The translations under genes were made by a program, and so were the position numbers. Below the pieces are notes generated by a model. The model was not told where the DNA came from, made no database searches, and saw only the letters and a program-made list of their open reading frames with translations. This document shows, in pieces, positions 18,956 to 59,434 of a stretch of 64,000 nucleotides of DNA (the stretch's first letter is position 1; the number at the start of each line of letters is the position of its first letter). Origin of the DNA: Escherichia coli (lineage in GTDB: Bacteria; Pseudomonadota; Gammaproteobacteria; Enterobacterales; Enterobacteriaceae); NCBI GenBank assembly GCA_025544715.1, contig GCA_025544715.1_4109.1; one strand, 5' to 3'.

Positions 18956-19001
18956 ATCATAAATAAATCAAATGAATGAACGAATTATATGGAGTCCAAA
19001 A

Positions 19002-28974: not shown

Positions 28975-29011
28975 AAAAAAGGAGAGCATATTGCTCTCCT
29001 TTTCTTTTTTT
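28975..29011. terminator. Bidirectional terminator between the giant structural gene and the ClpA-like gene
   Basis: A6 then GGAGAGC-atatt-GCTCTCC then TTTTCTTTTTTT. Confidence 0.85.
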
Positions 29012-31298
29012 ATGCCAGTGCTTTATCTACAGCTTTGGAACGTTTCGGTTTAATACCGATTTTACCATCAATAACATCAAATGTAATGTTACCACCATTC
29101 ACAAGTGAACCACACAACATTTCTTTAGCTAGTGGTACACGAATGTTTTGTTCAATGGTACGTTTCATTGGACGTGCACCCATGCCAACTTTTACCCCAT
29201 TTTTCGCAAGCCATTCACGTGCAGCTTTTGTCAATGTAACTTTAACATTGCGGTCTTTGACTTGTTCATTCAAACTGCCCATGAACTTATCAATGATGCT
29301 GTCAATAGCTTCACTGCTTAGGTCTTTAAACGTAACGATACTATCAATACGGTTAATGAACTCTGGTGGCAAGAATGCTTTAATTGCCTTGTCTTGTGCA
29401 GTATCACTACCGCTCATACCAATGCTACGCTTCGTTGAATCTGCCGCACCAAGGTTTGTAGTCATAATAACAGTTACGTTATTAAAATATACAGTTTTAC
29501 CTTGTGAACCAGTCAGGCGACCTTCATCCAAAACCTGTAGGAAGGTTAGTAGTACTTTACGATCTGCTTTTTCAATTTCATCAAGTAACAGTACTGCATT
29601 AGGGAACTGCTCAATTTTATCCAACAGTAAACCGTTACCAGAATCATGACCAACATAACCTGGAGGTGAACCAATTAGTTTAGAAACAGTATGTTCTTGA
29701 GAAAATTCTGACATATCAAAGCGAATCAGTTCCGCACCAGTTGCATCTGCTAATGCTTTGGTAATTTCTGTTTTACCAGTACCAGATGGTCCAACAAACA
29801 TAAATGCACCCTGAACACTAGATTTGTCACGCAGTCCTGCACGAGCTACCATCACGTTATCAACTAATTTTTGAATAGCTTCCTCTTGACCGTATACACG
29901 TGAGCGTAGTGCATCTGGTAGATTACGCATACGATCACTTTCAGTACATGCAACCACGTTGATATCCAAATTGGCAATGCCAGCAACAACTTCTTGAATC
30001 AAATTGGCAGTAATAAGCTTACTATTGTTGTCACGTGAACGAACTTTAGCAGCAGCAGCGTCCATTAGATCAATCGCTTTATCTGGGAAGTGCTTATTCT
30101 TCAGGAATTTATCACTGAGAGAAATTACAGCATCCATTGCATCAGTTGTGAACTCAACATTATGGAATTTTTCATAAGTTGGTTTCAAACCATTAACAAT
30201 TGCACGAGTTTCATCAATTGTCGGCTCAACTACATCAATTTTCATAAAACGACGAGTTAATGCACTATCTTTCTCGATATTTTTACGATATTCATCATAT
30301 GTTGTTGCACCAATTACACGAATCTCACCACGTGAAAGTGCTGGCTTAAGCATATTGCTCATGTCCATAGAACCATTACTTGCGGAACCAGCCCCAACCA
30401 TAATATGAATTTCATCAATGAAAACAATAGTATTTTCACGTTTCTTTAGTTCTTTTAGCAAATTGTCGATACGTTCTTCAAACTCACCACGATACTTAGT
30501 ACCAGCAGTCAATGCACCAACATTTAGTGAAAGAATTTCAACGTCTTTCAGGTGTTCAGGTACGTTGCCGTCAGCAATAGCTTGTGCAAGACCGTCGATG
30601 ATTTGTGTTTTACCTACACCAGCTTCACCAGTGAGAATAGCATTCTTTTTGGTCTTGCGAGCAAGAGTCTCAATCAATGCAGACAATTCTTTCTGGCGAC
30701 CAATCATAGGATCTAGTTTGCCTTCTTTTGCAAGAGCAGTTAGATTCGTTGTATAGTCTTCCAAACCTTTTTGTTTAGATGATTGCTGCTGTTGGGCCAC
30801 TTTTTTATCTCCAATCGGTTCGTCATTAATGCTTTGTAAGTTGATACCCTTATCAAGTGACTCAACGTGTTTTTGTAATGCACGTGCAGCTTCAGTACAG
30901 CTAACACCTTCTTCTTTTAACGCAGCTTCTAGTGCTGTGTTAGGGAAAGACAGACATTCGAATAGAACAAAATATGCATCAATCGAAAAATCATCACTTT
31001 TTAGTTGTTCAATAACTGATTTTTTAGAAAGCTCATGTACAACGCGATTCACTAGAAGTGAAGTACGATTCGCGTCTTCATCTTTAACACTTTTTGGTGC
31101 ATGTGGAACTGTTGTATTTTTAAGATAGTTCATCAGGCGGTTGTGCAGTTTGTCTGCATCAATGTTCATATCTTCAAATACGTTCTTGATGCTATCAATA
31201 GTCAGTACTGTGGCACTTACGTGGTCAATAGTCAAGAATGTATGACCTAGAGATGTTGCCAGTTCGTCGCTTTTTTTGAACAATTGAGTAAGATTCAT
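29010..31298 (-). CDS. clpA: ClpA-like two-ring AAA+ unfoldase (Clp N-domain, D1 and D2)
   Basis: 762 aa; D1 Walker A GEAGVGKT, Walker B IVFIDEIH; D2 Walker A GPSGTGKT, Walker [10 protein letters not shown]; collinear similarity to E. coli ClpA (recalled); IGM tripeptide (SIGMSGSD) at the position of the ClpA IGL ClpP-docking loop. Start taken as ATG 31298 with AGGAG RBS; ORF track GTG 31319 overlaps the RBS. Confidence 0.85.
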
Positions 31299-31338: not shown

Positions 31339-31366
31339 ATTATATCACATTCTTACGGTTTGTCTA
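31339..31366 (-). promoter_or_regulatory. Sigma70-like promoter (-35 TAGACA, 16 nt spacer, -10 TATAAT with upstream TGTGA) for the ClpA-like gene
   Basis: Minus-strand reading: TAGACA-aaccgtaagaatgtga-TATAAT; about 40 nt upstream of ClpA ATG 31298. Confidence 0.6.
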
Positions 31367-51957: not shown

Positions 51958-51995
51958 TAAAAAAGGGAGAACATTAGTTCTCCCTTTTCGTTTAT
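51958..51995. terminator. Bidirectional terminator between the last fibre gene and thyA
   Basis: A-run then GGGAGAAC-atta-GTTCTCCC then TTTTCGTTT. Confidence 0.85.
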
Positions 51996-52921
51996 ACAGC
52001 CATAGGTGCTTTAATTGTTGGCATTGGGTTGTAATTCACTAATTTGAAAGAATCCATTGTGAAATCTTCAATATTAGTAATTGTAGGATCAAGCCACAAT
52101 TCAGGTAATTCACGAGGTTTTCGCTGTAGTTGTTCTTTTACTTGTTCAACGTGGTTTTTATAAATGTGACAATCACCACCATTCCAAATAAATTCACCAA
52201 CATCTAAACCAGTAATTTGTGCAATCATATGAGTTAGTAGTGAGTAACTACTGATATTAAATGGAACTCCCAAAAATAGATCAGCGGAGCGTTGATGTAG
52301 AATGCAGCTTAGTTTCCCTTGTACTACACAAAATTGCACAAAGCTATGACAAGGTGGCAACGTCATATCATCAAGCTCACCAACGTTCCAGGCACTTAGA
52401 ATGTGGCGACGACCATATGGATCGGAATGTATACCTTTGATTAGTTCTTGTAATTGGTCAGTTGTACGTTTCATAACAACACCATGTGAACCAGTATAAT
52501 CGATAACTTTGTATCCTTTATCTTTTAATTCTTGAATTTCTTCAGTACTGGAACTAAATTTATAATCTTCCCATTCACGCCATTGCTTACCATACACTGG
52601 ACCCAATTCACCATCAGTATAACCAAGAGCAACGCCTTGATTTAGGTAATTATCTGTCCAAATTGTTTTCTTTTCAGTATCACGAGTTCCATGCAAAATT
52701 TCACAAAGGCGACGCTCATCATGGGAACCTTCAATAAACCATAGTAATTCTGAAGTCATTGCTTTCCAAGCTAGACGTTTTGTCGTCACTGCTGGGAAAC
52801 CATCGTTAAGGTCGAAACGCATTTGTTGACCGATAAGTTTGATTGTCCCAACACCAGTACGGTCAACGCTTTCTACGCCTTCATCTAGAATTTTTTGATA
52901 TAGTTCTTGTAGTTGTTTCAT
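51992..52921 (-). CDS. thyA: Thymidylate synthase (ThyA family)
   Basis: 309 aa; catalytic LPPCH, HQRSADLFLGVPFNISSYSLL, GGDCHIYKNH, C-terminal IKAPMAV; Asn in the PFNI motif implies a uracil-type substrate. Confidence 0.9.
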   Translation of the reverse strand: MKQLQELYQKILDEGVESVDRTGVGTIKLIGQQMRFDLNDGFPAVTTKRLAWKAMTSELLWFIEGSHDERRLCEILHGTRDTEKKTIWTDNYLNQGVALGYTDGELGPVYGKQWREWEDYKFSSSTEEIQELKDKGYKVIDYTGSHGVVMKRTTDQLQELIKGIHSDPYGRRHILSAWNVGELDDMTLPPCHSFVQFCVVQGKLSCILHQRSADLFLGVPFNISSYSLLTHMIAQITGLDVGEFIWNGGDCHIYKNHVEQVKEQLQRKPRELPELWLDPTITNIEDFTMDSFKLVNYNPMPTIKAPMAV

Positions 52922-53514
52922 TATACTTCCTTGAAAAATGTAATAAAATGTTCCATATGTTTTTCTGTGGCATTGCGTGAACCAATACCAGTCCAGTTTC
53001 CATGTGGAGGTGGAACCACGAATGATTGTTGGAACTCTTTCAGTACTGTATCGAAATAAAATACTGAACGTGAATTCATATCATAACAATAAATTTCAGG
53101 ATTTTCAACTGAATCCATATACATCTGTACTGCCCATGCAGTACCACCACTTACCTTAGTTGGTGATGTGATATTTGCAATACAATATATTCTTTCTGTA
53201 TTAAGTATCTGATAACTATTCCTTGCAAGTAAGTTGTAAACATAAGAACCAGGCTTCGGTACTTTTCGCTGTAACGAGTAACATGCAATGTTTAGTTGAT
53301 TTAATATAGAAATATCAGATAGAATATTGGATGGTATTTCTAATATAGTACTTTCATCTACACTATGCTCATGACCTTTGAATGAAAAATTAATAACTTC
53401 AAATCCATTATTTTTTGCATAGATAGAAAAAAGGCGGTCAGCACCTGCTGCCCCGCCACTAAAACATACATTAGATAAACCTTTTATTGCTTCATCTAAT
53501 TCATTCTTTTTCAT
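52921..53514 (-). CDS. Hypothetical Rossmann-like protein with SGGAAGAD loop (SLOG/DprA/YpsA-like?)
   Basis: 197 aa; stop overlaps the thyA start (TAATG); Gly-rich loop FSGGAAGADRLFS resembles the DprA/YpsA/LOG nucleotide-binding loop. Family assignment is a guess. Confidence 0.5.
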   Translation of the reverse strand: MKKNELDEAIKGLSNVCFSGGAAGADRLFSIYAKNNGFEVINFSFKGHEHSVDESTILEIPSNILSDISILNQLNIACYSLQRKVPKPGSYVYNLLARNSYQILNTERIYCIANITSPTKVSGGTAWAVQMYMDSVENPEIYCYDMNSRSVFYFDTVLKEFQQSFVVPPPHGNWTGIGSRNATEKHMEHFITFFKEV

Positions 53515-53517
53515 ATT

Positions 53518-54174
53518 TTATTTTGCTTTACGTTCTGCAAATAGTTGTTTTACTTTCTCAATAGCTTTAGTCTGTGAAATACCTTCTGGAATTTCTAGAT
53601 AAATTGTTTTACTATCTTTCGGTTGTTCAACAACTTGTGTTTGTGGACGCAAACTTGGCTCTAAATTATATGCACGTTCATAATGTTCTTTAGCCAGTTT
53701 TTCATATTTTTGTGCATCAGTGAGAAGTTGTTCTACAATAGTAGCTTCTTCTACTTTAGTGTCAGCTTCTTGTGGATTGAATGGGTTAAAGTCTTTTACT
53801 TTACCATCTTCTTGTACTTTTGCTTGATTTTCATCTAATGCTTTGTTTAGAACATCAAGAGAAATTTTATTATTACCACCAGTGTGCATATCAATGTCAC
53901 AAGTACGAACGCGACGTAGATGCTGCATATTGTGTAGAACATCTAGCATTTTGCGTCCATCGAGATAACCAATTTTATGCATTACTTCCCACAAATCAAT
54001 ATTAGATTGACCATGACCCATAACAATATCAGTTACTGCGTGAACATATGCTTCTGGTAGTGAATCACGATAAACAATAAGGCAGTGTTCAGGATCATCT
54101 GGTAGTGAACGCCAAACAACAAAAACACGAGAACCTGTATTACGCATTACACCAACATGACGAATAGCTGCCAT
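53518..54174 (-). CDS. Hypothetical protein (218 aa)
   Basis: Tightly packed in the same minus-strand operon. Confidence 0.5.
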   Translation of the reverse strand: MAAIRHVGVMRNTGSRVFVVWRSLPDDPEHCLIVYRDSLPEAYVHAVTDIVMGHGQSNIDLWEVMHKIGYLDGRKMLDVLHNMQHLRRVRTCDIDMHTGGNNKISLDVLNKALDENQAKVQEDGKVKDFNPFNPQEADTKVEEATIVEQLLTDAQKYEKLAKEHYERAYNLEPSLRPQTQVVEQPKDSKTIYLEIPEGISQTKAIEKVKQLFAERKAK

Positions 54175-54176
54175 AA

Positions 54177-54437
54177 TTATTCTCCTTTATCTTCTTGAGT
54201 TTCACTATCTTGTGATTCAGCTTCTTCTTTAGCTGCATCTTCTTGTGCTTTAATATCTTCAAGAGCTACATTTGCAAAAGAAACAAATTTAGATACAACT
54301 GGAGCAACCTCAACAAGTTCTTCAACTTTAAAGGTGTTTCGTGCAACAGCAGCTTCCATAATTTTTGCAGCATTGATTAGGTCTAGAAGGGTTAGTTGAA
54401 TTTGATTATTTTCTTGTTCCATTTTAATACTCTCCAT
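54177..54437 (-). CDS. Small acidic hypothetical protein (86 aa; may start at internal Met, 54422)
   Basis: Second ATG has a GGAGAG RBS; sigma70-like promoter immediately upstream. Confidence 0.4.
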   Translation of the reverse strand: MESIKMEQENNQIQLTLLDLINAAKIMEAAVARNTFKVEELVEVAPVVSKFVSFANVALEDIKAQEDAAKEEAESQDSETQEDKGE

Positions 54438-54445
54438 GTATATTG

Positions 54446-54473
54446 GTACATTAACTATTATATCATATTTTTA
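54446..54473 (-). promoter_or_regulatory. Sigma70-like promoter (-35 GGGACA, 16 nt, -10 TATAAT), same family
   Basis: Minus-strand reading: GGGACA-acttataaaaatatga-TATAAT; just upstream of the 86 aa gene and downstream of a minus-strand terminator. Confidence 0.5.
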
Positions 54474-54486
54474 TAAGTTGTCCCAC

Positions 54487-54520
54487 TTATAAAAAGAAGA
54501 GAACGGAAAATTCCGTTCTC
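54487..54520 (-). terminator. Rho-independent terminator (minus strand) after the vWA gene
   Basis: Minus-strand reading: GAGAACGG-aatttt-CCGTTCTC followed by TTCTTTTTATAA. Confidence 0.7.
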
Positions 54521-54532
54521 ATTATTTAGTAC

Positions 54533-55957
54533 TTAACTACGTTGACGCTTTTTATCAGCTTCATATTCGTAGTGTACAGTCTCACCAAATGGTGCAACTT
54601 TATTTGGGTTACTGTGAATCACGAACAGTGTTTTACAGTAGTTTGGATCACCCCACGACTGCCACGGTTCACCATCTGTAAACATTACAAGCTGTTTAGG
54701 CTTGTAGTTGTCGTTCTTCATATGAACCCATACTGCTTCAAAGTCAGTACCACCACCACCTTTTACTGGATATTCCAGAATCTTACGTTCTTCGCCAGTT
54801 TTGTAATCCTTTACAGTATAAACTTCAGTATCAAAAGTCATGATACGAATCTTAAACTGTTTGAATTGTTTAGTGATACCTAGAACTTCACTAATGAAAT
54901 CACGAAGCATATCTTCAGAAATAGATCCAGAAGCATCTAGTGCAATCGCAATATCAATGTCATCATCTGGTTTCATCCCTGGGTAAATTGGATTACCATA
55001 GAATGAACCATTAGAACCAAAACCTGCACCCCAAGAACGACGATTCGGATTTTGATATGTTGCATCAGACTTCAACCAACTACGAAGTGTGCGTTGAAGT
55101 TTTGAACGCCAGTCAATCTTTGGTTCTTTAAAGTTGTTAATCATACGAGCGATTTCTGCTGGTGTACCACCTGCACGAGCAGCATTCATCATTGCTGTTT
55201 TGAAATCATCCATGTAATCACGTTTTTGTTTCTCACTTGAACCACCCTCTTGACCTTCTTGTGGAACGTCATGCTGGTCAATTGTAGTACCTTTTGGTTT
55301 ACCCTTACCATCTTTAATATCGCCAAAAGTACCGCGATTTTTACCTTCACCTTCGCTACCACCACTTTGTGGTTGACCTTCACCTTCACCATCTTCTTTT
55401 TGTTCTTCTTCTTCAAGAAGAATGTAAATCTCTTCTGCGGTCATACCTTCATATTTTTTATCATACAACCATGAACTTTGGATTTTTCCAATTTTCTCAC
55501 GAACGATGATTTGGTTAATGGCATAATCCGCTGCACGGTTATAACGTTGTGGATCACGCATACCACGACGAAGGAAGTGATCGTAAGCACAGTGTAGAAT
55601 TTCATGACAAATTACAGCAATAAGGTTTTCATCAGTCAAACCTTCAGTCATTTCTTTTAATTGTTCGTCTGTAACTTCAGGGTGCTTTTCACGAATAGCT
55701 TCTTCATATTCTTTCTTTTTAGATGGGTCTTGAATGCCCATTACAAATTCTACGTTGTAGAATAGATGTTTACCATCCACTGCTAGAGTACGACACCATG
55801 TATTATTAGGAACTGGACGTAAACGTGAAGCGAGTACGCCAAAGAATGGTGCAGTTAACATCAAAGATGTACGAGCCAGAACCAGACGATCTTGACATTC
55901 TTTCTGAAGTGCAGGAGATACTTCATTGAATATGGAAGTAGATTTGTTATCTGACAT
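54533..55957 (-). CDS. vWA-domain protein with N-terminal zincin-like metallopeptidase motif (DUF2201-vWA type)
   Basis: 474 aa; HEILH (HExxH) in N-terminal half; vWA MIDAS motif DASGS in C-terminal half; acidic Gly-rich linker. Confidence 0.75.
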   Translation of the reverse strand: MSDNKSTSIFNEVSPALQKECQDRLVLARTSLMLTAPFFGVLASRLRPVPNNTWCRTLAVDGKHLFYNVEFVMGIQDPSKKKEYEEAIREKHPEVTDEQLKEMTEGLTDENLIAVICHEILHCAYDHFLRRGMRDPQRYNRAADYAINQIIVREKIGKIQSSWLYDKKYEGMTAEEIYILLEEEEQKEDGEGEGQPQSGGSEGEGKNRGTFGDIKDGKGKPKGTTIDQHDVPQEGQEGGSSEKQKRDYMDDFKTAMMNAARAGGTPAEIARMINNFKEPKIDWRSKLQRTLRSWLKSDATYQNPNRRSWGAGFGSNGSFYGNPIYPGMKPDDDIDIAIALDASGSISEDMLRDFISEVLGITKQFKQFKIRIMTFDTEVYTVKDYKTGEERKILEYPVKGGGGTDFEAVWVHMKNDNYKPKQLVMFTDGEPWQSWGDPNYCKTLFVIHSNPNKVAPFGETVHYEYEADKKRQRS

Positions 55958-56031
55958 GTATATTTCCTCGTTTAGTTAAGATAAAAGAAGGATACCATTA
56001 GGCATCCTTCTTGTCAACAACTCTTTGTTAA

Positions 56032-57357
56032 TTAGCCAAGAGAGCGTGCTTTACGTACAAGTTCAGAGTACTTAGCGATGAAATCTTTAAACGCTGGTAC
56101 ATCTTTAATGGAAATCGCAACCTTATGAAGCGTGATGGTACGAATTGCCAGTACTGCCAGTTCTGCTTGAGTTGCAGAGAAGTTATGGTCTAGGAAGGTG
56201 ATGAAGTTGTTACACAGTTTACCCCATTCTTCCACTGGTAGACGTTGTTCTTGCTTCTCATTGAACAGGTCGATAATTTTATAAACCAAGTTCAGAGTGA
56301 TAAAGTAGTTCGCAGAAATATCCAGCGTTGCGTCGATTTCTTTGATTTCACCAGACAGAATAGACATAGTATCTGGTAGTTTAGCAACGTTCTCAACGTA
56401 CTCAATGTATTCAGTCGCAACACCTTCACCAACACGACCAGCAATCATTGCACGGAACACTTCTTTATCAATTGTCTTATTTTTCTTGAGATCTTCGTAG
56501 CGTGCTACTGCTTCCCATGAACGTGGAGAAGTACCACCGCTGTGAGAAGGATCTTGTGGGCTAAGTGTGTTAAAGTACTTAGAACCAGTGTTGTTGATGA
56601 ACGCAACAGTTGCTGGGTTCAAACGTTTTGCAATCGCATAATCGTTAATCCAATCTTGATGATAAGGAATCATCTCAATGTGAGTCATACGGTCACGCAG
56701 TGGTGTAGCAAGAGAGAACGTTACACCGCCATCAGTTTCACGGTTACCTGCTGCAAGAATCAGTGCAGTCTTAGGTAGCTTCATCTCACCAACACAACGG
56801 TCGAGGATTAGCTGATAAGACGCTGCCTGAACAATAGGCATTGCAGAGTTAATTTCGTCAAACAGAATAACACCTTTCCAATCTTCGGACAATTTCAGTA
56901 CTTTAGGTGCAGCCCATACTACCGCTGTTTCAGCTACATAATCTTTTGCTTCGGCAAGCTCAGATTCTTTCAGAAGAGAACCGTCAGTTTTACGGAAAAG
57001 CTTCTCTGGAACTGGAATACCGCGAAGGTCACTTGGTTCAATTTGAGACAAACGGAAATCGATAAAGTTAGTATCTTGGTCGATTAGTTTTGCTTCAAAT
57101 GCAGCCAGTTCACGGCGTAGCTGATCAGCATTTTCAGGGTCAGCTTCGATTTGTTGTTTCATGAACTCGATTTTAGCTACGTTATCTTTACGCAGTGGGT
57201 AATTTTCATCAGCATATTGACGAGCGATAGCAGACTTACCGATACCTGGGCTACCCCAAATCATCAGGCTATCTTGAATCATGTCAGCCAGTGCCATTGC
57301 TTCTTTAGCTTTCTTTGGAGTCAGTTTAACGTTCAGGATATCGTTTTGAGTAGTCAT
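56032..57357 (-). CDS. MoxR/CbbQ/CobS-like AAA+ ATPase (AAA_5 type)
   Basis: 441 aa; Walker A GSPGIGKS, Walker B ILFDEINS; AGGAAA RBS; immediately upstream of the vWA gene. Confidence 0.8.
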   Translation of the reverse strand: MTTQNDILNVKLTPKKAKEAMALADMIQDSLMIWGSPGIGKSAIARQYADENYPLRKDNVAKIEFMKQQIEADPENADQLRRELAAFEAKLIDQDTNFIDFRLSQIEPSDLRGIPVPEKLFRKTDGSLLKESELAEAKDYVAETAVVWAAPKVLKLSEDWKGVILFDEINSAMPIVQAASYQLILDRCVGEMKLPKTALILAAGNRETDGGVTFSLATPLRDRMTHIEMIPYHQDWINDYAIAKRLNPATVAFINNTGSKYFNTLSPQDPSHSGGTSPRSWEAVARYEDLKKNKTIDKEVFRAMIAGRVGEGVATEYIEYVENVAKLPDTMSILSGEIKEIDATLDISANYFITLNLVYKIIDLFNEKQEQRLPVEEWGKLCNNFITFLDHNFSATQAELAVLAIRTITLHKVAISIKDVPAFKDFIAKYSELVRKARSLG

Positions 57358-57526
57358 GTATATATTTCCTTTTGTTGGATAAAATCGTTTAAGTTTCTAT
57401 TATAGCCAATCCGTGGGCAAAAGTAAAGGAACTGTGTTAAAATAATTTAACTTATCAGTTCCTTTGTTACTTCATGAATCATCCGTGTGTTTAAAAGGTA
57501 AATCTCTTTGCTGTCTTGATGTGAAC

Positions 57527-57554
57527 ATTATATCACATCGTTTCAACTTGTCAA
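57527..57554 (-). promoter_or_regulatory. Sigma70 consensus promoter (-35 TTGACA, 16 nt, -10 TATAAT), proximal copy
   Basis: Minus-strand reading: TTGACA-agttgaaacgatgtga-TATAAT; about 170 nt upstream of the AAA+ ATPase start. Confidence 0.65.
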
Positions 57555-57621
57555 TCACTTTTTTTCTTTTTTTTTTCAAACTCACATCTTGTGACGCTTG
57601 AAAACTTTATGTATGATGCTT

Positions 57622-57649
57622 ATTATATCACATCATTCTATCTTGTCAA
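57622..57649 (-). promoter_or_regulatory. Sigma70 consensus promoter (-35 TTGACA, 16 nt, -10 TATAAT), distal tandem copy
   Basis: Minus-strand reading: TTGACA-agatagaatgatgtga-TATAAT; 95 bp upstream of the proximal copy. Confidence 0.65.
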
Positions 57650-57672
57650 CATTTATTTTTAATTCATTTTTC

Positions 57673-58053
57673 TTACATATGAATAGAAAATAACTGTTTA
57701 AAATCATCACAACACAATGTTAATTCAGTTATTATCATTGCATCTGTCAGATATATGTACTGACCTTCAACATAGTAAGGTGAAGTACATATTCTGTCAA
57801 GTGATGTAAACATTATAGAACTTTTAAATTCTCTTTGCAAGGGGATTTTTGTAAATTCATAAAGATTATTTTCTTTACAAATTCCATATCCAAACTTACT
57901 AAGACGTAAACCACCGCCAGTTCTGAAATTTTCAAAAATTGACATCAGAAGCATACGGTCTGTTATTTCTGAATCTGATTCATGTACTTCCCTAACTTTG
58001 GAAAGTACATTATTTTGATATTCAGTACTGTTATGTGATGGTTCTGGAAACAT
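57673..58053 (-). CDS. Hypothetical protein (126 aa)
   Basis: ORF in the minus-strand cluster. Confidence 0.45.
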   Translation of the reverse strand: MFPEPSHNSTEYQNNVLSKVREVHESDSEITDRMLLMSIFENFRTGGGLRLSKFGYGICKENNLYEFTKIPLQREFKSSIMFTSLDRICTSPYYVEGQYIYLTDAMIITELTLCCDDFKQLFSIHM

Positions 58054-58056
58054 ATA

Positions 58057-58452
58057 TTAGTCTCCAACAAAACCTTGACGTGCAGCATAAGATGGTGCAC
58101 CAGGTTCATTATAGTGTTGTACACCTTCTTTGTCAATTGTTGGTCCCATACCTTCAGTACCAAAACAACCTGCAATGGCTTCCAACACTTCATCATCAGC
58201 AACTTCAGTACTTTCATCATTATATCGAATGTCAGACAAAATGTCACAGGCTTTTTGTAGTTTATCTACAATTTCTTTTTGGTCTTCACCAGATTTAATC
58301 TTATCAACAATGTTAATAAGACATTTGGTAATATCCTTAAGAACATCAACTGCTACAACATCGGATTCAACTTCAACTGAAAAACTTTCGTCTTCATCTC
58401 TTCCGGTAATTTCGTCTAACGCTTCAACTAGTTCACGATAATTATATTGCAT
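58057..58452 (-). CDS. Hypothetical acidic protein (131 aa)
   Basis: ORF in the minus-strand cluster; Asp/Glu-rich. Confidence 0.45.
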   Translation of the reverse strand: MQYNYRELVEALDEITGRDEDESFSVEVESDVVAVDVLKDITKCLINIVDKIKSGEDQKEIVDKLQKACDILSDIRYNDESTEVADDEVLEAIAGCFGTEGMGPTIDKEGVQHYNEPGAPSYAARQGFVGD

Positions 58453-58453
58453 A

Positions 58454-59434
58454 TTATTTGTCTCCTAAAAATTTCTTGTATTTTTCTTGGAGACTTTCAA
58501 AAATATCTTCTACTTCTTCATCAGAATCATCTTCCAAGTCAATGTTACCTTCAGGTGAATCATCTTCTTCACTTTCATTAACATTTAGTGGGTTATCTCC
58601 TAATGCAGTGCCTGGGAATTTTGGTTCAAATTTATGAACACGATTTTCGTTCCCTTCATTATCATAATACTCAGGTTCTGGACGATTGTCAAGATCTTCA
58701 TCTACAACACGTCTCCAATAAAACTGATTGCCTTTTGCAATTACAACAAAATGGTCACCTTCAACACCATTAGTCTTTAGTTGACCATCACGAACTGCAT
58801 CAGCTTCTGTTCCATATGGACCGTAATCAGTACTGTTAGATGGTTCTTCATCTTCAGAGATACTTAGATCTGGTAGAAATTGGGTATCTTTCATTTCTTT
58901 ATCGGTGGCAGGATTACCCTCTACGGAAAAATCTTCGTCTTCTTCTTCGTTAATACCAGCAAGGGATAGCATACGACTAAAATCGAATTCTTCTTCAATA
59001 ATTTCTTCTTCTTCCTCATCGTCTTCTTCAACTGATTCTAGTTGAGGTTGACCACTAAGGTCAAGAGAAAAATCTTCTTCACCTTCTACACCTGGTTCTG
59101 AAAATTCAGCATCCATACTAACTTCATCTGAGTCAGCACCAAAATCACCAACATCAGCGGAAAGATCATCAACTGCCGCTGCTAGTGGGTCTTCAACTGA
59201 AGTTTCAATTCCACCAATTTCTTCTTCAGCACCAATAGAATCTAGATCTAGTGGAGCAATAGGTGGAAGAGATGGAGTCATAGACCCCATTGATGGTACT
59301 GGAGCAGCAACAACTGGGTCTTGACGTTCAGCTTGACCAGCAAGTGCTAACATACGTGATAGTGTTTCCAAATCATCAGATTCTAAACCTGCGATATCGA
59401 TTTTAACTTGTGCTTCATTAATTTTTTTAGCCAT
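58454..59434 (-). CDS. Highly acidic hypothetical protein (326 aa) with repeated RML(A/S)LAG motif
   Basis: Long Asp/Glu runs (EEDDEEEEEIIEEE); two copies of SRMLALAG / SRMLSLAG. Confidence 0.5.
   Translation of the reverse strand: MAKKINEAQVKIDIAGLESDDLETLSRMLALAGQAERQDPVVAAPVPSMGSMTPSLPPIAPLDLDSIGAEEEIGGIETSVEDPLAAAVDDLSADVGDFGADSDEVSMDAEFSEPGVEGEEDFSLDLSGQPQLESVEEDDEEEEEIIEEEFDFSRMLSLAGINEEEDEDFSVEGNPATDKEMKDTQFLPDLSISEDEEPSNSTDYGPYGTEADAVRDGQLKTNGVEGDHFVVIAKGNQFYWRRVVDEDLDNRPEPEYYDNEGNENRVHKFEPKFPGTALGDNPLNVNESEEDDSPEGNIDLEDDSDEEVEDIFESLQEKYKKFLGDK

Follow-up and report, generated by a model that had tools for sequence, protein, structure and literature searches.

A MoxR-class ATPase and zincin-vWA protein pair of an Asteriusvirus jumbo coliphage, related to phage N4 gp24/gp25, as a putative ATP-driven remodeller/protease

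The AAA ATPase gp24 and the vWFA protein gp25 of phage N4 belong to the set of 14 core genes shared by the N4-like phages, the Schitoviridae (PMC4193335), and have been listed without an assigned function (PMC2784036, PMC4193335). In T4-related jumbo phages of group 2.2, Iyer et al. (2021) recognized a MoxR AAA+ ATPase accompanied by a vWA co-chaperone with an N-terminal metallopeptidase, a description that fits the pair studied here (PMC7824862). Another viral MoxR plus vWA pair that can be likened to ours by description, p618 (MoxR) and p892 (vWA) of the archaeal Acidianus two-tailed virus, has no peptidase domain, is tied to extracellular tail development, and is invoked as the precedent for a chaperone function in viruses (PMC7824862, PMC7159879). 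In the cellular systems CbbQ/CbbO, NorQ/NorD, RavA/ViaA, and midasin, the vWA partners lack a zincin domain and the machines are remodellers or cofactor-insertion factors rather than proteases; their sequence similarity to the phage pair is marginal. CobS/CobT likewise combine an AAA+ ATPase with a vWA protein; such pairs occur in some phages, and we know of no HExxH domain in CobT. The bacterial AAA_5/DUF2201 (COG3864-type) dyads of Chromatiales share the layout of our pair, an AAA_5 ATPase of 347-359 aa lying directly upstream of a DUF2201_N plus DUF2201 protein, but they are 27-30% identical to the window protein, are devoid of the phage-specific inserts, and their ATPases pass the AAA_5 cut-off.

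Here, we describe a two-gene unit within a 64-kb stretch of DNA (the window, meaning the whole stretch analysed). Judged by sequence, the window is from an Asteriusvirus jumbo coliphage (giant E. coli phage), with 98.8% identity over 3.3 kb to the Asteriusvirus genomes 121Q, PBECO4, and phAPEC6, and the unit consists of the Asteriusvirus orthologues of N4 gp24/gp25 (Table 1). In the N4-like phage IME11, two neighbouring genes match the window pair with BLASTP E values of 7e-26 and 1e-26, are homologous to it over most of both lengths, and have the same order, the ATPase followed immediately by the vWA protein. N4 gp24/gp25 also share with the window pair the zincin-plus-vWA architecture and the nucleotide-metabolism genes downstream, whereas the jumbo-phage proteins differ from their N4-like counterparts by two inserts in the ATPase (aa 52-93 and 123-144) and, in the partner, by a helical insert ahead of the HExxH helix and a long disordered acidic/Gly-rich stretch. 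Such a pair was known before as a predicted module (Iyer et al., 2021, PMC7824862), and nearly identical genes carry the GenBank notes "MoxR ATPase" and "N4 gp25-like", elsewhere "gp24-like"/"gp25-like"; the Muenster record points to N4 YP_950502 as a homologue. The analysis directly established the identity of the genes, their motifs and homology, the conservation of their pairing, and the anatomy of the promoters and hairpins. By analogy with the systems above, we consider it somewhat probable that this N4 gp24/gp25 module constitutes a split, two-component ATP-driven remodeller/protease, made before the late phase and attenuated in its leader.

Table 1. Features of the two-gene unit and its control region, in window coordinates
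Feature	Position	Strand	Description
Zincin-vWA protein (partner), N4 gp25 orthologue by sequence	54533..55957	-	474 aa, 54.1 kDa; phrog_1314 2.9e-127
Partner zincin domain (putative)	about 55388-55915	-	HEILH at 55592-55606, residues 118-122
Partner vWA domain	54563-54958	-	C-terminal 130 residues; MIDAS DASGS at 54923-54937, residues 341-345
Partner disordered Gly/Glu/Lys-rich stretch	aa 190-240	-	Predicted model
MoxR-class AAA+ ATPase, N4 gp24 orthologue by sequence	56032..57357	-	441 aa, 49.5 kDa; phrog_1297 2e-107
ATPase Walker A GSPGIGKS	57232-57255	-	Motif; residues 35-42
ATPase Walker B VILFDE	56854-56871	-	Motif; residues 163-168
ATPase lineage-specific insert 1	57079-57204	-	Residues 52-93; relative to ~360-aa homologues
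ATPase lineage-specific insert 2	56926-56991	-	Residues 123-144; relative to ~360-aa homologues
Promoter P1	57622..57649	-	TTGACA-16-TATAAT, TGn extended -10, A/T-rich tract upstream
Stem-loop in P1 transcript, not terminator-like	57573..57604	-	Fold; sequence kept in Asteriusvirus
Promoter P2	57527..57554	-	TTGACA-16-TATAAT with TGn; second copy of the 95-bp tandem unit
First ACGGAT motif (consensus AYGGAW)	57481..57486	-	Upstream of leader hairpin; read from sequences
Leader hairpin and T-run	57416..57465	-	Arms AAAGGAACTG/CAGTTCCTTT, inner GTTAAA/TTTAAC stem, then ACTTTTGCC
Second ACGGAT motif	57409..57414	-	Just past the T-run of the leader hairpin
Promoter-like site P3	57399..57427	-	TTTACT-17-TATAAT (10/12); -35 overlaps the leader-hairpin T-run
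Intergenic terminator-like hairpin	55976..56012	-	12 bp, then TTTTATCTT; between ATPase and partner genes
Terminator hairpin	54499..54520	-	GAGAACGGAA-TTTT-CCGTTCTC, then TTCTTTTTAT; ends the two-gene unit

The preliminary description had proposed, from the sequence, adjacent genes for an AAA+ ATPase and a protein with HExxH and vWA MIDAS motifs, and both open reading frames and their motifs were confirmed, with the key residues invariant. The ATPase possesses the AAA+ core of the MoxR class, with Walker A and B, sensor 1, arginine finger, and sensor 2; G35, G38, K41, S42, E168, N205, R223 (within PLRDRM), and R279 (within SPR) are invariant in a family alignment of 64 relatives, the sensor or arginine finger roles of N205, R223, and R279 being assigned by motif analogy. 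The large insertion suggested between Walker A and B corresponds to the two lineage-specific inserts, which in the AF2 model (pLDDT 86.4) form a helical hairpin and a beta-hairpin extension. The assignment to the AAA_5 type stood only in part, since 37 of the 64 relatives match AAA_5 (best 3e-11) but the window ATPase itself falls below Pfam AAA_5: its Pfam search gave AAA at 21.3 bits (cut-off 21.2), AAA_3 below the cut-off (E 0.007), and no AAA_5 match, probably because the inserts break the profile. Other relatives match AAA_3 (27) and bpMoxR (13). Structurally, likeness to solved MoxR proteins was found and the closest solved structures are NorQ (254 aa) and CbbQ (267 aa), to which about 215 residues align, the C-terminal helical domain (aa ~295-441) falling beyond the aligned part; a PDB profile search also found midasin (2.5e-4) over the P-loop region only.

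The partner, in turn, is on sequence grounds a zincin-type HExxH domain joined to a MIDAS vWA domain, as had been proposed. It matches Pfam DUF2201_N (PF13203) at 3e-35 and 122.4 bits (curated cut-off 23.2) and DUF2201 (PF09967) at 7e-21 and 75 bits (curated cut-off 26.4). In an alignment of 63 relatives, H118, E119, H122, D341, S343, S345, T404, and D428 are invariant, so that the catalytic Glu of HExxH is kept in 63/63 and the vWA fold carries the full MIDAS motif (DxSxS ... T ... D); H127 and D144, likewise invariant or almost so, are candidate third metal ligands. The HEILH motif sits on a predicted helix (109-128) preceded by three strands (47-67) modelled at a pLDDT of about 90, and the relatives match zincin families, namely Peptidase_M48 in 35/63 (best 3.8e-5), and also PhageMetallopep, DUF5700, YgjP, and SprT-like. 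A profile search with the N-terminal domain gave weak matches to the minigluzincin MJ1213 (E 0.044) and Ste24p (E 0.62), confined to the HExxH helix, and two fold searches with the partner returned only vWA matches, the vWA domain dominating both. Inteins in two homologues lie exactly at HEVLH|C and NMA|CDY, insertion points that in our reading mark these as critical sites. These findings suggest that the N-terminal half is a putative minimal zincin (HExxH) metallopeptidase domain. A match to CobS/CobT, named as a possibility in the preliminary description, was rejected: NCBIfam profiles gave zero matches to either protein at E <= 0.01, and hence none to CobS/CobT or chelatase models, and the Pfam matches listed for the window proteins and the top 25 families of their relatives include no CobS/CobT family. 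PADLOC defence-system models also had no match to either protein at E <= 0.01.

The partner gene starts 75 bp downstream of the ATPase gene, and the two genes are adjacent or close to each other in Rak2-like, PA5oct-like, and N4-like phages, in metagenomic phage contigs, and in bacterial chromosomes. The phage distributions of the two proteins are near-identical (813 and 692 records). The family to which the bacterial dyads belong is very large, with 25,294 cluster representatives at 50% identity (E <= 1e-3).

The control region holds the tandem promoters noted at the outset, two near-perfect sigma70 sites 95 bp apart. Both P1 and P2 proved to be perfect TTGACA-16-TATAAT sites with TGn, and their -35 elements start exactly 95 bp apart. 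Four perfect 12/12 sigma70 sites occur in the 64 kb, three of them within 57527-58136; with TG included in the pattern and at most one mismatch allowed, there were 3 matches against 0.14 expected, a number reached in 0/100 shuffles. P1 is kept in the six Asteriusvirus genomes scanned, with SP27 having three copies, the first of which scores 11/12. The A-run that follows the stem-loop in the P1 transcript doubles as the upstream A-tract of P2. The further claim that these promoters drive the pair to very strong early expression was not supported in that form: a leader hairpin with a T-run intervenes, P3 follows it, a terminator-like hairpin lies between the genes, and we found no expression data; the strength of P1 and P2 and the termination efficiency of the hairpins are predictions.

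The leader hairpin proper (57465..57425, followed by ACTTTTG) lies between the tandem promoters and the ATPase ATG, folds with a dG of -15.2 (z -4.9), and looks like an intrinsic terminator or attenuator; in G17 it is annotated as an ARNOLD terminator. Its position is kept in five genera (Asteriusvirus, Alcyoneusvirus, 7t3, Eneladusvirus, and Mimasvirus), with compensatory stem changes from GGAACTG to GGCACTG to AGCACTG, and a motif comparable to ACGGAT precedes it in all five. The intergenic hairpin is more stable (dG -18.6, z -7.8), and 7t3, pEa_SNUABM_44, and GAP32 have hairpins with T-runs of unrelated sequence at the matching position. The terminator that ends the unit (dG -14.2, z -4.9) is likewise an ARNOLD terminator in G17. 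Only for the leader hairpin and the terminator between the genes did we find no earlier description.

It is possible, if doubtful, that P1 and P2 mainly yield a short leader RNA, about 100 nt long when started at P2 or 195 nt when started at P1, which would end at the leader hairpin, and that the ATPase mRNA would come mostly from P3, the tandem promoters not being its main drivers. The hairpin and its T-run, with their compensatory changes in five genera, lie 55-105 nt past the predicted P2 start, and P3 is present directly after the hairpin in all Asteriusvirus genomes examined; moreover, expressed non-coding RNAs are known from PA5oct, a related phage (PMC7318152). However, the T-run is interrupted (CTTTACTTTTG), for which reason leaky termination is predicted; neither a promoter-like site past the hairpin nor a -10 equivalent to that of P3 is present in pEa_SNUABM_44 and GAP32, whose ATPase mRNA must therefore read through the hairpin; the sequence upstream of the hairpin differs between genera; and an Rfam search of the leader gave no match.

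It seems most likely that expression of the pair precedes the late phase. Late promoters of the T4 type (TATAAATA) precede plus-strand structural genes within the window, and none lies upstream of the ATPase/partner unit; transcription before the late phase would thus follow from its sigma70-type promoters, and these promoter classes are also those of CBB, a related phage (PMC5259590). In N4, gp24/25 belong to the middle transcripts (PMC4193335), and the promoters of the window pair differ in looking like host sigma70 sites. In the window, as in 7t3, GAP32, IME11, roseophages, and two metagenomic phages, the pair is followed after a few genes by one for thymidylate synthase, either ThyA or ThyX, which are unrelated to each other; the rV5-like phages and other contigs examined have no such neighbour, and this closeness may reflect only a shared expression module. 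The context as a whole points to a pre-replicative, DNA/nucleotide-metabolism programme over virion morphogenesis.

In the latter setting, proposed by Iyer et al. (2021) for exactly such a pair in group 2.2 jumbo phages (PMC7824862), the two proteins would act late as an assembly chaperone and protease that folds or assembles structural proteins and trims them, and would resemble Acidianus two-tailed virus p618/p892. We regard this as unlikely, even though the unit is flanked by tail-fibre genes and genes of PHROG "virion structural protein" families and the ATPase orthologue gp265c was found in purified phAPEC6 virions with 6 peptides and 19% coverage (PMC7247149). The partner gp264c was not detected in the same virions (PMC7247149), whose protein list includes abundant non-structural proteins, since thymidylate synthase, SSB, a RecA-like protein, and a topoisomerase are also in it. 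In the excerpt of the CBB gene table consulted, the structural/MS columns read "Yes" for CBB_213/214 and are blank for CBB_216/217. N4 gp24/25 are moreover middle genes amid replication and nucleotide-metabolism genes, and the dyad also occurs in bacterial chromosomes without phage context. Promoter type, N4 timing, and the neighbourhoods seen here therefore lean toward a pre-late, non-structural role, unlike the virion assembly with peptidolytic processing of that proposal. Very unlikely, in our view, is a chaperone for cofactor insertion or enzyme activation (cf. NorQ/NorD, CoxD/CoxE, CbbQ/CbbO, and the chelatases) that would, for example, mature a neighbouring nucleotide-metabolism enzyme, its HExxH domain binding metal or acting as an adaptor instead of cutting proteins: NorQ and CbbQ being the closest solved structures, the NorQ-NorD vWA complex appearing among the vWA matches, and genes for ThyA/ThyX, dCTP deaminase, or dUTPase lying near the pair in at least three phage lineages speak for it, but the invariant HExxH Glu and the inteins at the motif both fit an active peptidase, NCBIfam has no match, Mg_chelatase is matched only weakly in 12/64 ATPase relatives, and neither ThyA nor ThyX is known to require an inserted metal.

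For the split remodeller/protease that we favour, we infer complex formation, proteolysis, timing, and attenuation as follows. With CbbQ/CbbO, NorQ/NorD, and midasin as models, the ATPase would assemble into a hexameric ring. The vWA domain would dock onto this ring, or grip an acidic residue of the target through its own MIDAS metal, or both; the target would be remodelled through ATP hydrolysis and cut by the fused zincin domain. Transcription would be driven by the host sigma70-type promoters and dampened by the leader hairpin and its T-run acting as an attenuator, and the inter-gene terminator would lead to more ATPase than partner. We looked in the literature for experiments on members of this phage family and found none. 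Going further, one may speculate, though we think it improbable, that the pair represents a hitherto uncharacterized class of split ATP-dependent protease that many large virulent phages (N4-like, rV5-like, and Rak2-like) deploy before replication to destroy or process host proteins (e.g., of defence or the nucleoid) or phage proteins, its dose being set by a leader attenuator flanked by AYGGAW motifs that a phage or host factor could read.

The window itself adds little: annotated genes almost identical to these exist, and the pair has been described computationally. Genes of the gp24/gp25 type, however, are common to all N4-like phages (2/14 core genes, PMC4193335) and are found in about 700-800 sequenced phage genomes and in metagenomic protein clusters numbering tens of thousands. 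Should the pair be an early-acting, ATP-dependent, MIDAS-guided metalloprotease, its architecture would be a new one among ATP-dependent proteases, and identifying its substrate would account for a central step in how several major phage groups infect their hosts.

The preliminary description took the two adjacent genes for an AAA+ ATPase of the MoxR type that carries an insertion and for its zincin-vWA partner, and this identification is correct. The pair is most likely a two-component ATP-driven remodeller or protease. It is already known, and its novelty is low because the genes are near-identical to annotated ones and have been described before as a module. Across its 3.3 kb the region shares 98.4-98.8% identity with over 20 jumbo coliphages of the genus Asteriusvirus, such as 121Q, PBECO4, slurp01, G17, and phAPEC6. 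In phAPEC6 the genes are annotated as gp265c ("ATPase, MoxR ATPase") and gp264c ("N4 gp25-like protein"), and the records of phages K64-1 and 7t3 name them "gp24-like" and "gp25-like". Searches of NCBIfam and of the PADLOC defence models with both proteins returned zero matches, which rules out CobS/CobT naming and the known defence-system models; nor is a CobS/CobT family, anticipated as a possible objection, among the Pfam matches listed. Judged by these family searches, the pair is neither CobS/CobT nor a known defence system. The GenBank and PHROG labels "HNH endonuclease", "DNA repair ATPase", and "Zn-dependent hydrolase" were also checked, and the window protein matches no HNH or nuclease family.

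Features of the two-gene unit and its flanking signals
Feature	Coordinates	Strand	Description
P1, promoter	57649..57622	-	TTGACA-16-TATAAT with TGn extended -10
P2, promoter	57554..57527	-	TTGACA-16-TATAAT with TGn extended -10
Leader hairpin	57465..57425	-	between P2 and ATPase ATG; dG -15.2, z -4.9; followed by ACTTTTGCC
P3, promoter-like site	57427..57399	-	TTTACT-17-TATAAT; overlaps T-run; Asteriusvirus
ATPase ORF	57357..56032	-	441 aa, 49.5 kDa
Inter-gene hairpin and T-run	56012..55985	-	between ATPase and partner genes; dG -18.6
Partner ORF	55957..54533	-	474 aa, 54.1 kDa
Terminator	54520..54499	-	clean; closes the two-gene unit

In the ATPase, the residues of Walker A (GSPGIGKS, 35-42) and Walker B (VILFDE, 163-168), together with N205, R223, and R279, are invariant among its homologues (63-64 diverse sequences were aligned per protein). 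The large insertion reported for this protein is real, consisting of segments 52-93 and 123-144 that exceed the ~360-aa relatives and that appear in the AF2 model (pLDDT 86.4) as a helical hairpin plus an extended beta-hairpin. The AAA_5 type holds for the homologues, 37/64 of which match that family, with matches to AAA_3 and bpMoxR as well, but the ATPase itself matches Pfam AAA families marginally, and its strong match is to phrog_1297 (2e-107). As the margin over Hsp100-type matches is small, its MoxR-class assignment is based on all lines of evidence together. When the PDB was searched by sequence, with profiles as well as single proteins, only P-loop matches to midasin/p97 were significant, and one integrin I-domain match was marginal.

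The partner carries HEILH at residues 118-122 and DASGS at 341-345, and the HExxH and MIDAS residues, including T404 and D428, are invariant in its alignment. Its Pfam matches are DUF2201_N ("putative metallopeptidase", 3e-35) and DUF2201 ("VWA-like", 7e-21). The vWA/MIDAS and HExxH motifs of the proposed architecture are present, and the zincin assignment of the N-terminal domain is supported but not proven. Among the partner's relatives, Peptidase_M48 is matched by 35/63 (best 3.8e-5), and PhageMetallopep, DUF5700, YgjP-like, M56, and SprT-like families are matched as well. The N-domain profile matches minigluzincin MJ1213 (E 0.044) and Ste24p (E 0.62) over the HExxH helix only. The partner model places three beta-strands ahead of that helix with high confidence, and both fold searches with it were dominated by vWA domain matches. 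Inteins usually occupy catalytic motifs of important proteins. Two partner homologues, P0290 (794 aa) and P0291 (733 aa), carry inteins; their extra length had made them candidates for ATPase-partner fusions, which was rejected. One intein, with Hint and LAGLIDADG domains, directly follows the second His of HExxH (HEVLH|C...HN|C), and the other immediately precedes the invariant Asp of an NxAxD motif (D144 of the partner). These positions, equivalent to partner residues 122/123 (55589-55594) and 143/144 (55526-55531), suggest that both motifs are critical. The inteins may also explain the "HNH endonuclease" label of PHROG 1314 and many GenBank records.

Upstream of the unit, the two sigma70 promoters claimed in the preliminary description were found as described, exactly 95 bp apart, both lying on a diverged 95-bp tandem repeat. 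Perfect 12/12 sites occur only four times in 64 kb, three of them within 57527-58136, and the extended pattern with at most one mismatch gave 3 matches vs 0.14 expected by chance. Every one of the six other Asteriusvirus genomes scanned keeps the promoters; a single copy is present in the Klebsiella Alcyoneusvirus phages, and Escherichia phage SP27 (L004, 253-470) has three copies of the 95-bp unit rather than two, so that copy number varies within one species. Short inverted repeats enclose the -10 hexamers, GATGTGA-N8-TCACATC at P2 (57527-57549, minus strand) and ATGATG-N12-CATCAT at P1 (57622-57640, minus strand); they resemble operators, and TH47 and A4 have similar arms. The TGAAACG in the P2 spacer was considered as a CBB/GAP32 second-class -35 box and dismissed, since its spacing from the -10 is wrong and it is unconserved among Asteriusvirus genomes. 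Three further minus-strand sigma70 sites (58108-58136, 58219-58247, and 58664-58692; 12/12, 11/12, and 11/12) all point toward the ATPase unit from inside the reading frames of two "virion structural protein" genes with very acidic products, the first lying 55 nt upstream of a 126-aa ORF (58053..57673). The extended -10 signature (AATGTGATATAAT) recurs in another promoter, which has TAGACA as its -35 and lies at 31339-31366 (minus strand), upstream of a 762-aa gene (31298..29010).

That the pair is driven by these promoters stands only in part, for they are present but a stable hairpin with a T-run intervenes before the ATPase ATG. The G17 record annotates this hairpin as a terminator. The order of extended -10 promoter, short leader, hairpin with T-run, and ATPase start is shared by Alcyoneusvirus, Salmonella phage 7t3, Eneladusvirus, and Mimasvirus, and between genera the stem shows compensatory changes, from GGAACTG/CAGTTCC to GGCACTG/CAGTGCC to AGCACTG/CAGTGCT. 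It is possible, though we think it rather doubtful, that the tandem promoters mostly make a short leader RNA, as the position of the hairpin and the overlap of P3 with its T-run in Asteriusvirus would allow. However, Eneladusvirus and Mimasvirus have no promoter comparable to P3 downstream of the hairpin, so that their ATPase mRNA must read through it, and we therefore read the hairpin as a probable leaky terminator or attenuator. An AYGGAW motif (ACGGAT at 57409-57414 and 57481-57486, minus strand) flanks the hairpin on both sides in 5/5 phage genera compared (equivalent sites in loci L010, L016, L017, and L018) and may be recognised by a protein or an RNA. A short ORF that overlaps the hairpin and encodes MIHEVTKELIS in the window was rejected as a conserved leader peptide, because it is down to 2-7 codons or gone in A4, Muenster, pEa_SNUABM_44, GAP32, and 7t3. 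An Rfam search of 54300-58300 gave only chance-level miRNA/snoRNA matches. Hairpins of unrelated sequence occupy the inter-gene position in 7t3, pEa_SNUABM_44, and GAP32. Because of the inter-gene hairpin, the ATPase would be made in excess over the partner, which suits a hexamer served by an adaptor of lower copy number.

With regard to timing, T4-type late promoters (TATAAATA) lie upstream of plus-strand structural genes at 1903, 8440, and 14460, and the window scan found none ahead of the ATPase/partner unit. Variants occur at 18972, 3785, and 49993, and these motifs fit the gp55-like late transcription reported for phage CBB (PMC5259590). This related phage is reported to have the same three promoter classes: early genes with RpoD-like promoters that include an UP element, a TGAAACG/-10 class near DNA-synthesis genes, and late genes with ATAAATA promoters (PMC5259590). 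In GAP32 and pEa_SNUABM_44 the ATPase gene is preceded by a promoter of the TGAAAC(G/A) type. The N4 orthologues gp24 and gp25, listed as "unknown" and "vWFA domain", belong to middle transcripts (PMC4193335; PMC2784036). Taken together, the absent late promoter, the TGAAAC(G/A) promoters, and the N4 middle-gene status point to expression before the late phase.

Iyer et al., who described the pair in jumbo phages, put forward a virion-assembly role for it (PMC7824862), which we regard as unlikely. In its favor, and counting against a pre-late, non-structural view, the ATPase gp265c was detected in purified phAPEC6 virions with 6 peptides and 19% coverage (PMC7247149). However, the partner was not detected, and the same list includes thymidylate synthase, SSB, a RecA-like protein, and topoisomerase (PMC7247149); in the passages covered of the CBB supplementary gene table, neither protein has an entry in the structural columns. 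The phAPEC6 proteome also includes gp259c (thymidylate synthase, 51992-52921) and gp262c (218-aa ORF, 53518-54174) (PMC7247149), and the presence of these two products and the ATPase may mean that they are truly packaged or that abundant proteins were carried over. A cofactor-insertion role is improbable.

The pair is widespread. A tblastn search recovered the partner from 692 phage records and the ATPase from 813, the genus distributions being nearly equal. Carriers of the pair include Rak2-like and PA5oct-like jumbo phages, rV5-like phages, and N4-like Schitoviridae, where gp24 and gp25 are two of 14 core genes (PMC4193335). The N4-like phage IME11 has an adjacent homologous gene pair (7e-26 and 1e-26). 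In the rV5-like phage "nomine", the "anti-sigma factor" gene adjoining the metallopeptidase is not an ATPase homologue; its MoxR ATPase lies a few kb away on the opposite strand. Searching 1.84 billion cluster representatives with a profile retrieved 25,294 relatives of the partner, and the dyad recurs in bacterial chromosomes, where the AAA_5 ATPase gene immediately precedes the DUF2201 gene. The literature search found no experimental study of any member of these families. In several lineages (the window, L002, L016, L018, L020, and L022) a thymidylate synthase gene lies a few genes downstream; the Rak2-like group has ThyA, IME11 and two metagenomic phage contigs have ThyX, an enzyme unrelated to ThyA, and roseophages likewise have a thymidylate synthase gene. 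Genes for dCTP deaminase or dUTPase are often adjacent, and this neighborhood agrees with pre-late expression. Directly upstream of the window's thymidylate synthase, a 197-aa ORF (52921-53514, minus strand) has a DprA-like/SLOG match (phrog_768, 1.3e-26) and a Pfam YAcAr match below cut-off (5e-4), and may encode a nucleotide-processing enzyme coupled to ThyA. In a 154-kb metagenomic phage contig (L014, 1565-13113), the pair lies among ClpX-like, ClpS, and ClpP genes, a proteolysis-themed neighborhood.

As a remodeller or protease, the pair would be synthesized before the late phase, its expression trimmed by the leader attenuator and the inter-gene terminator, and the vWA/MIDAS domain of the partner would select the substrate that its zincin domain would cut.
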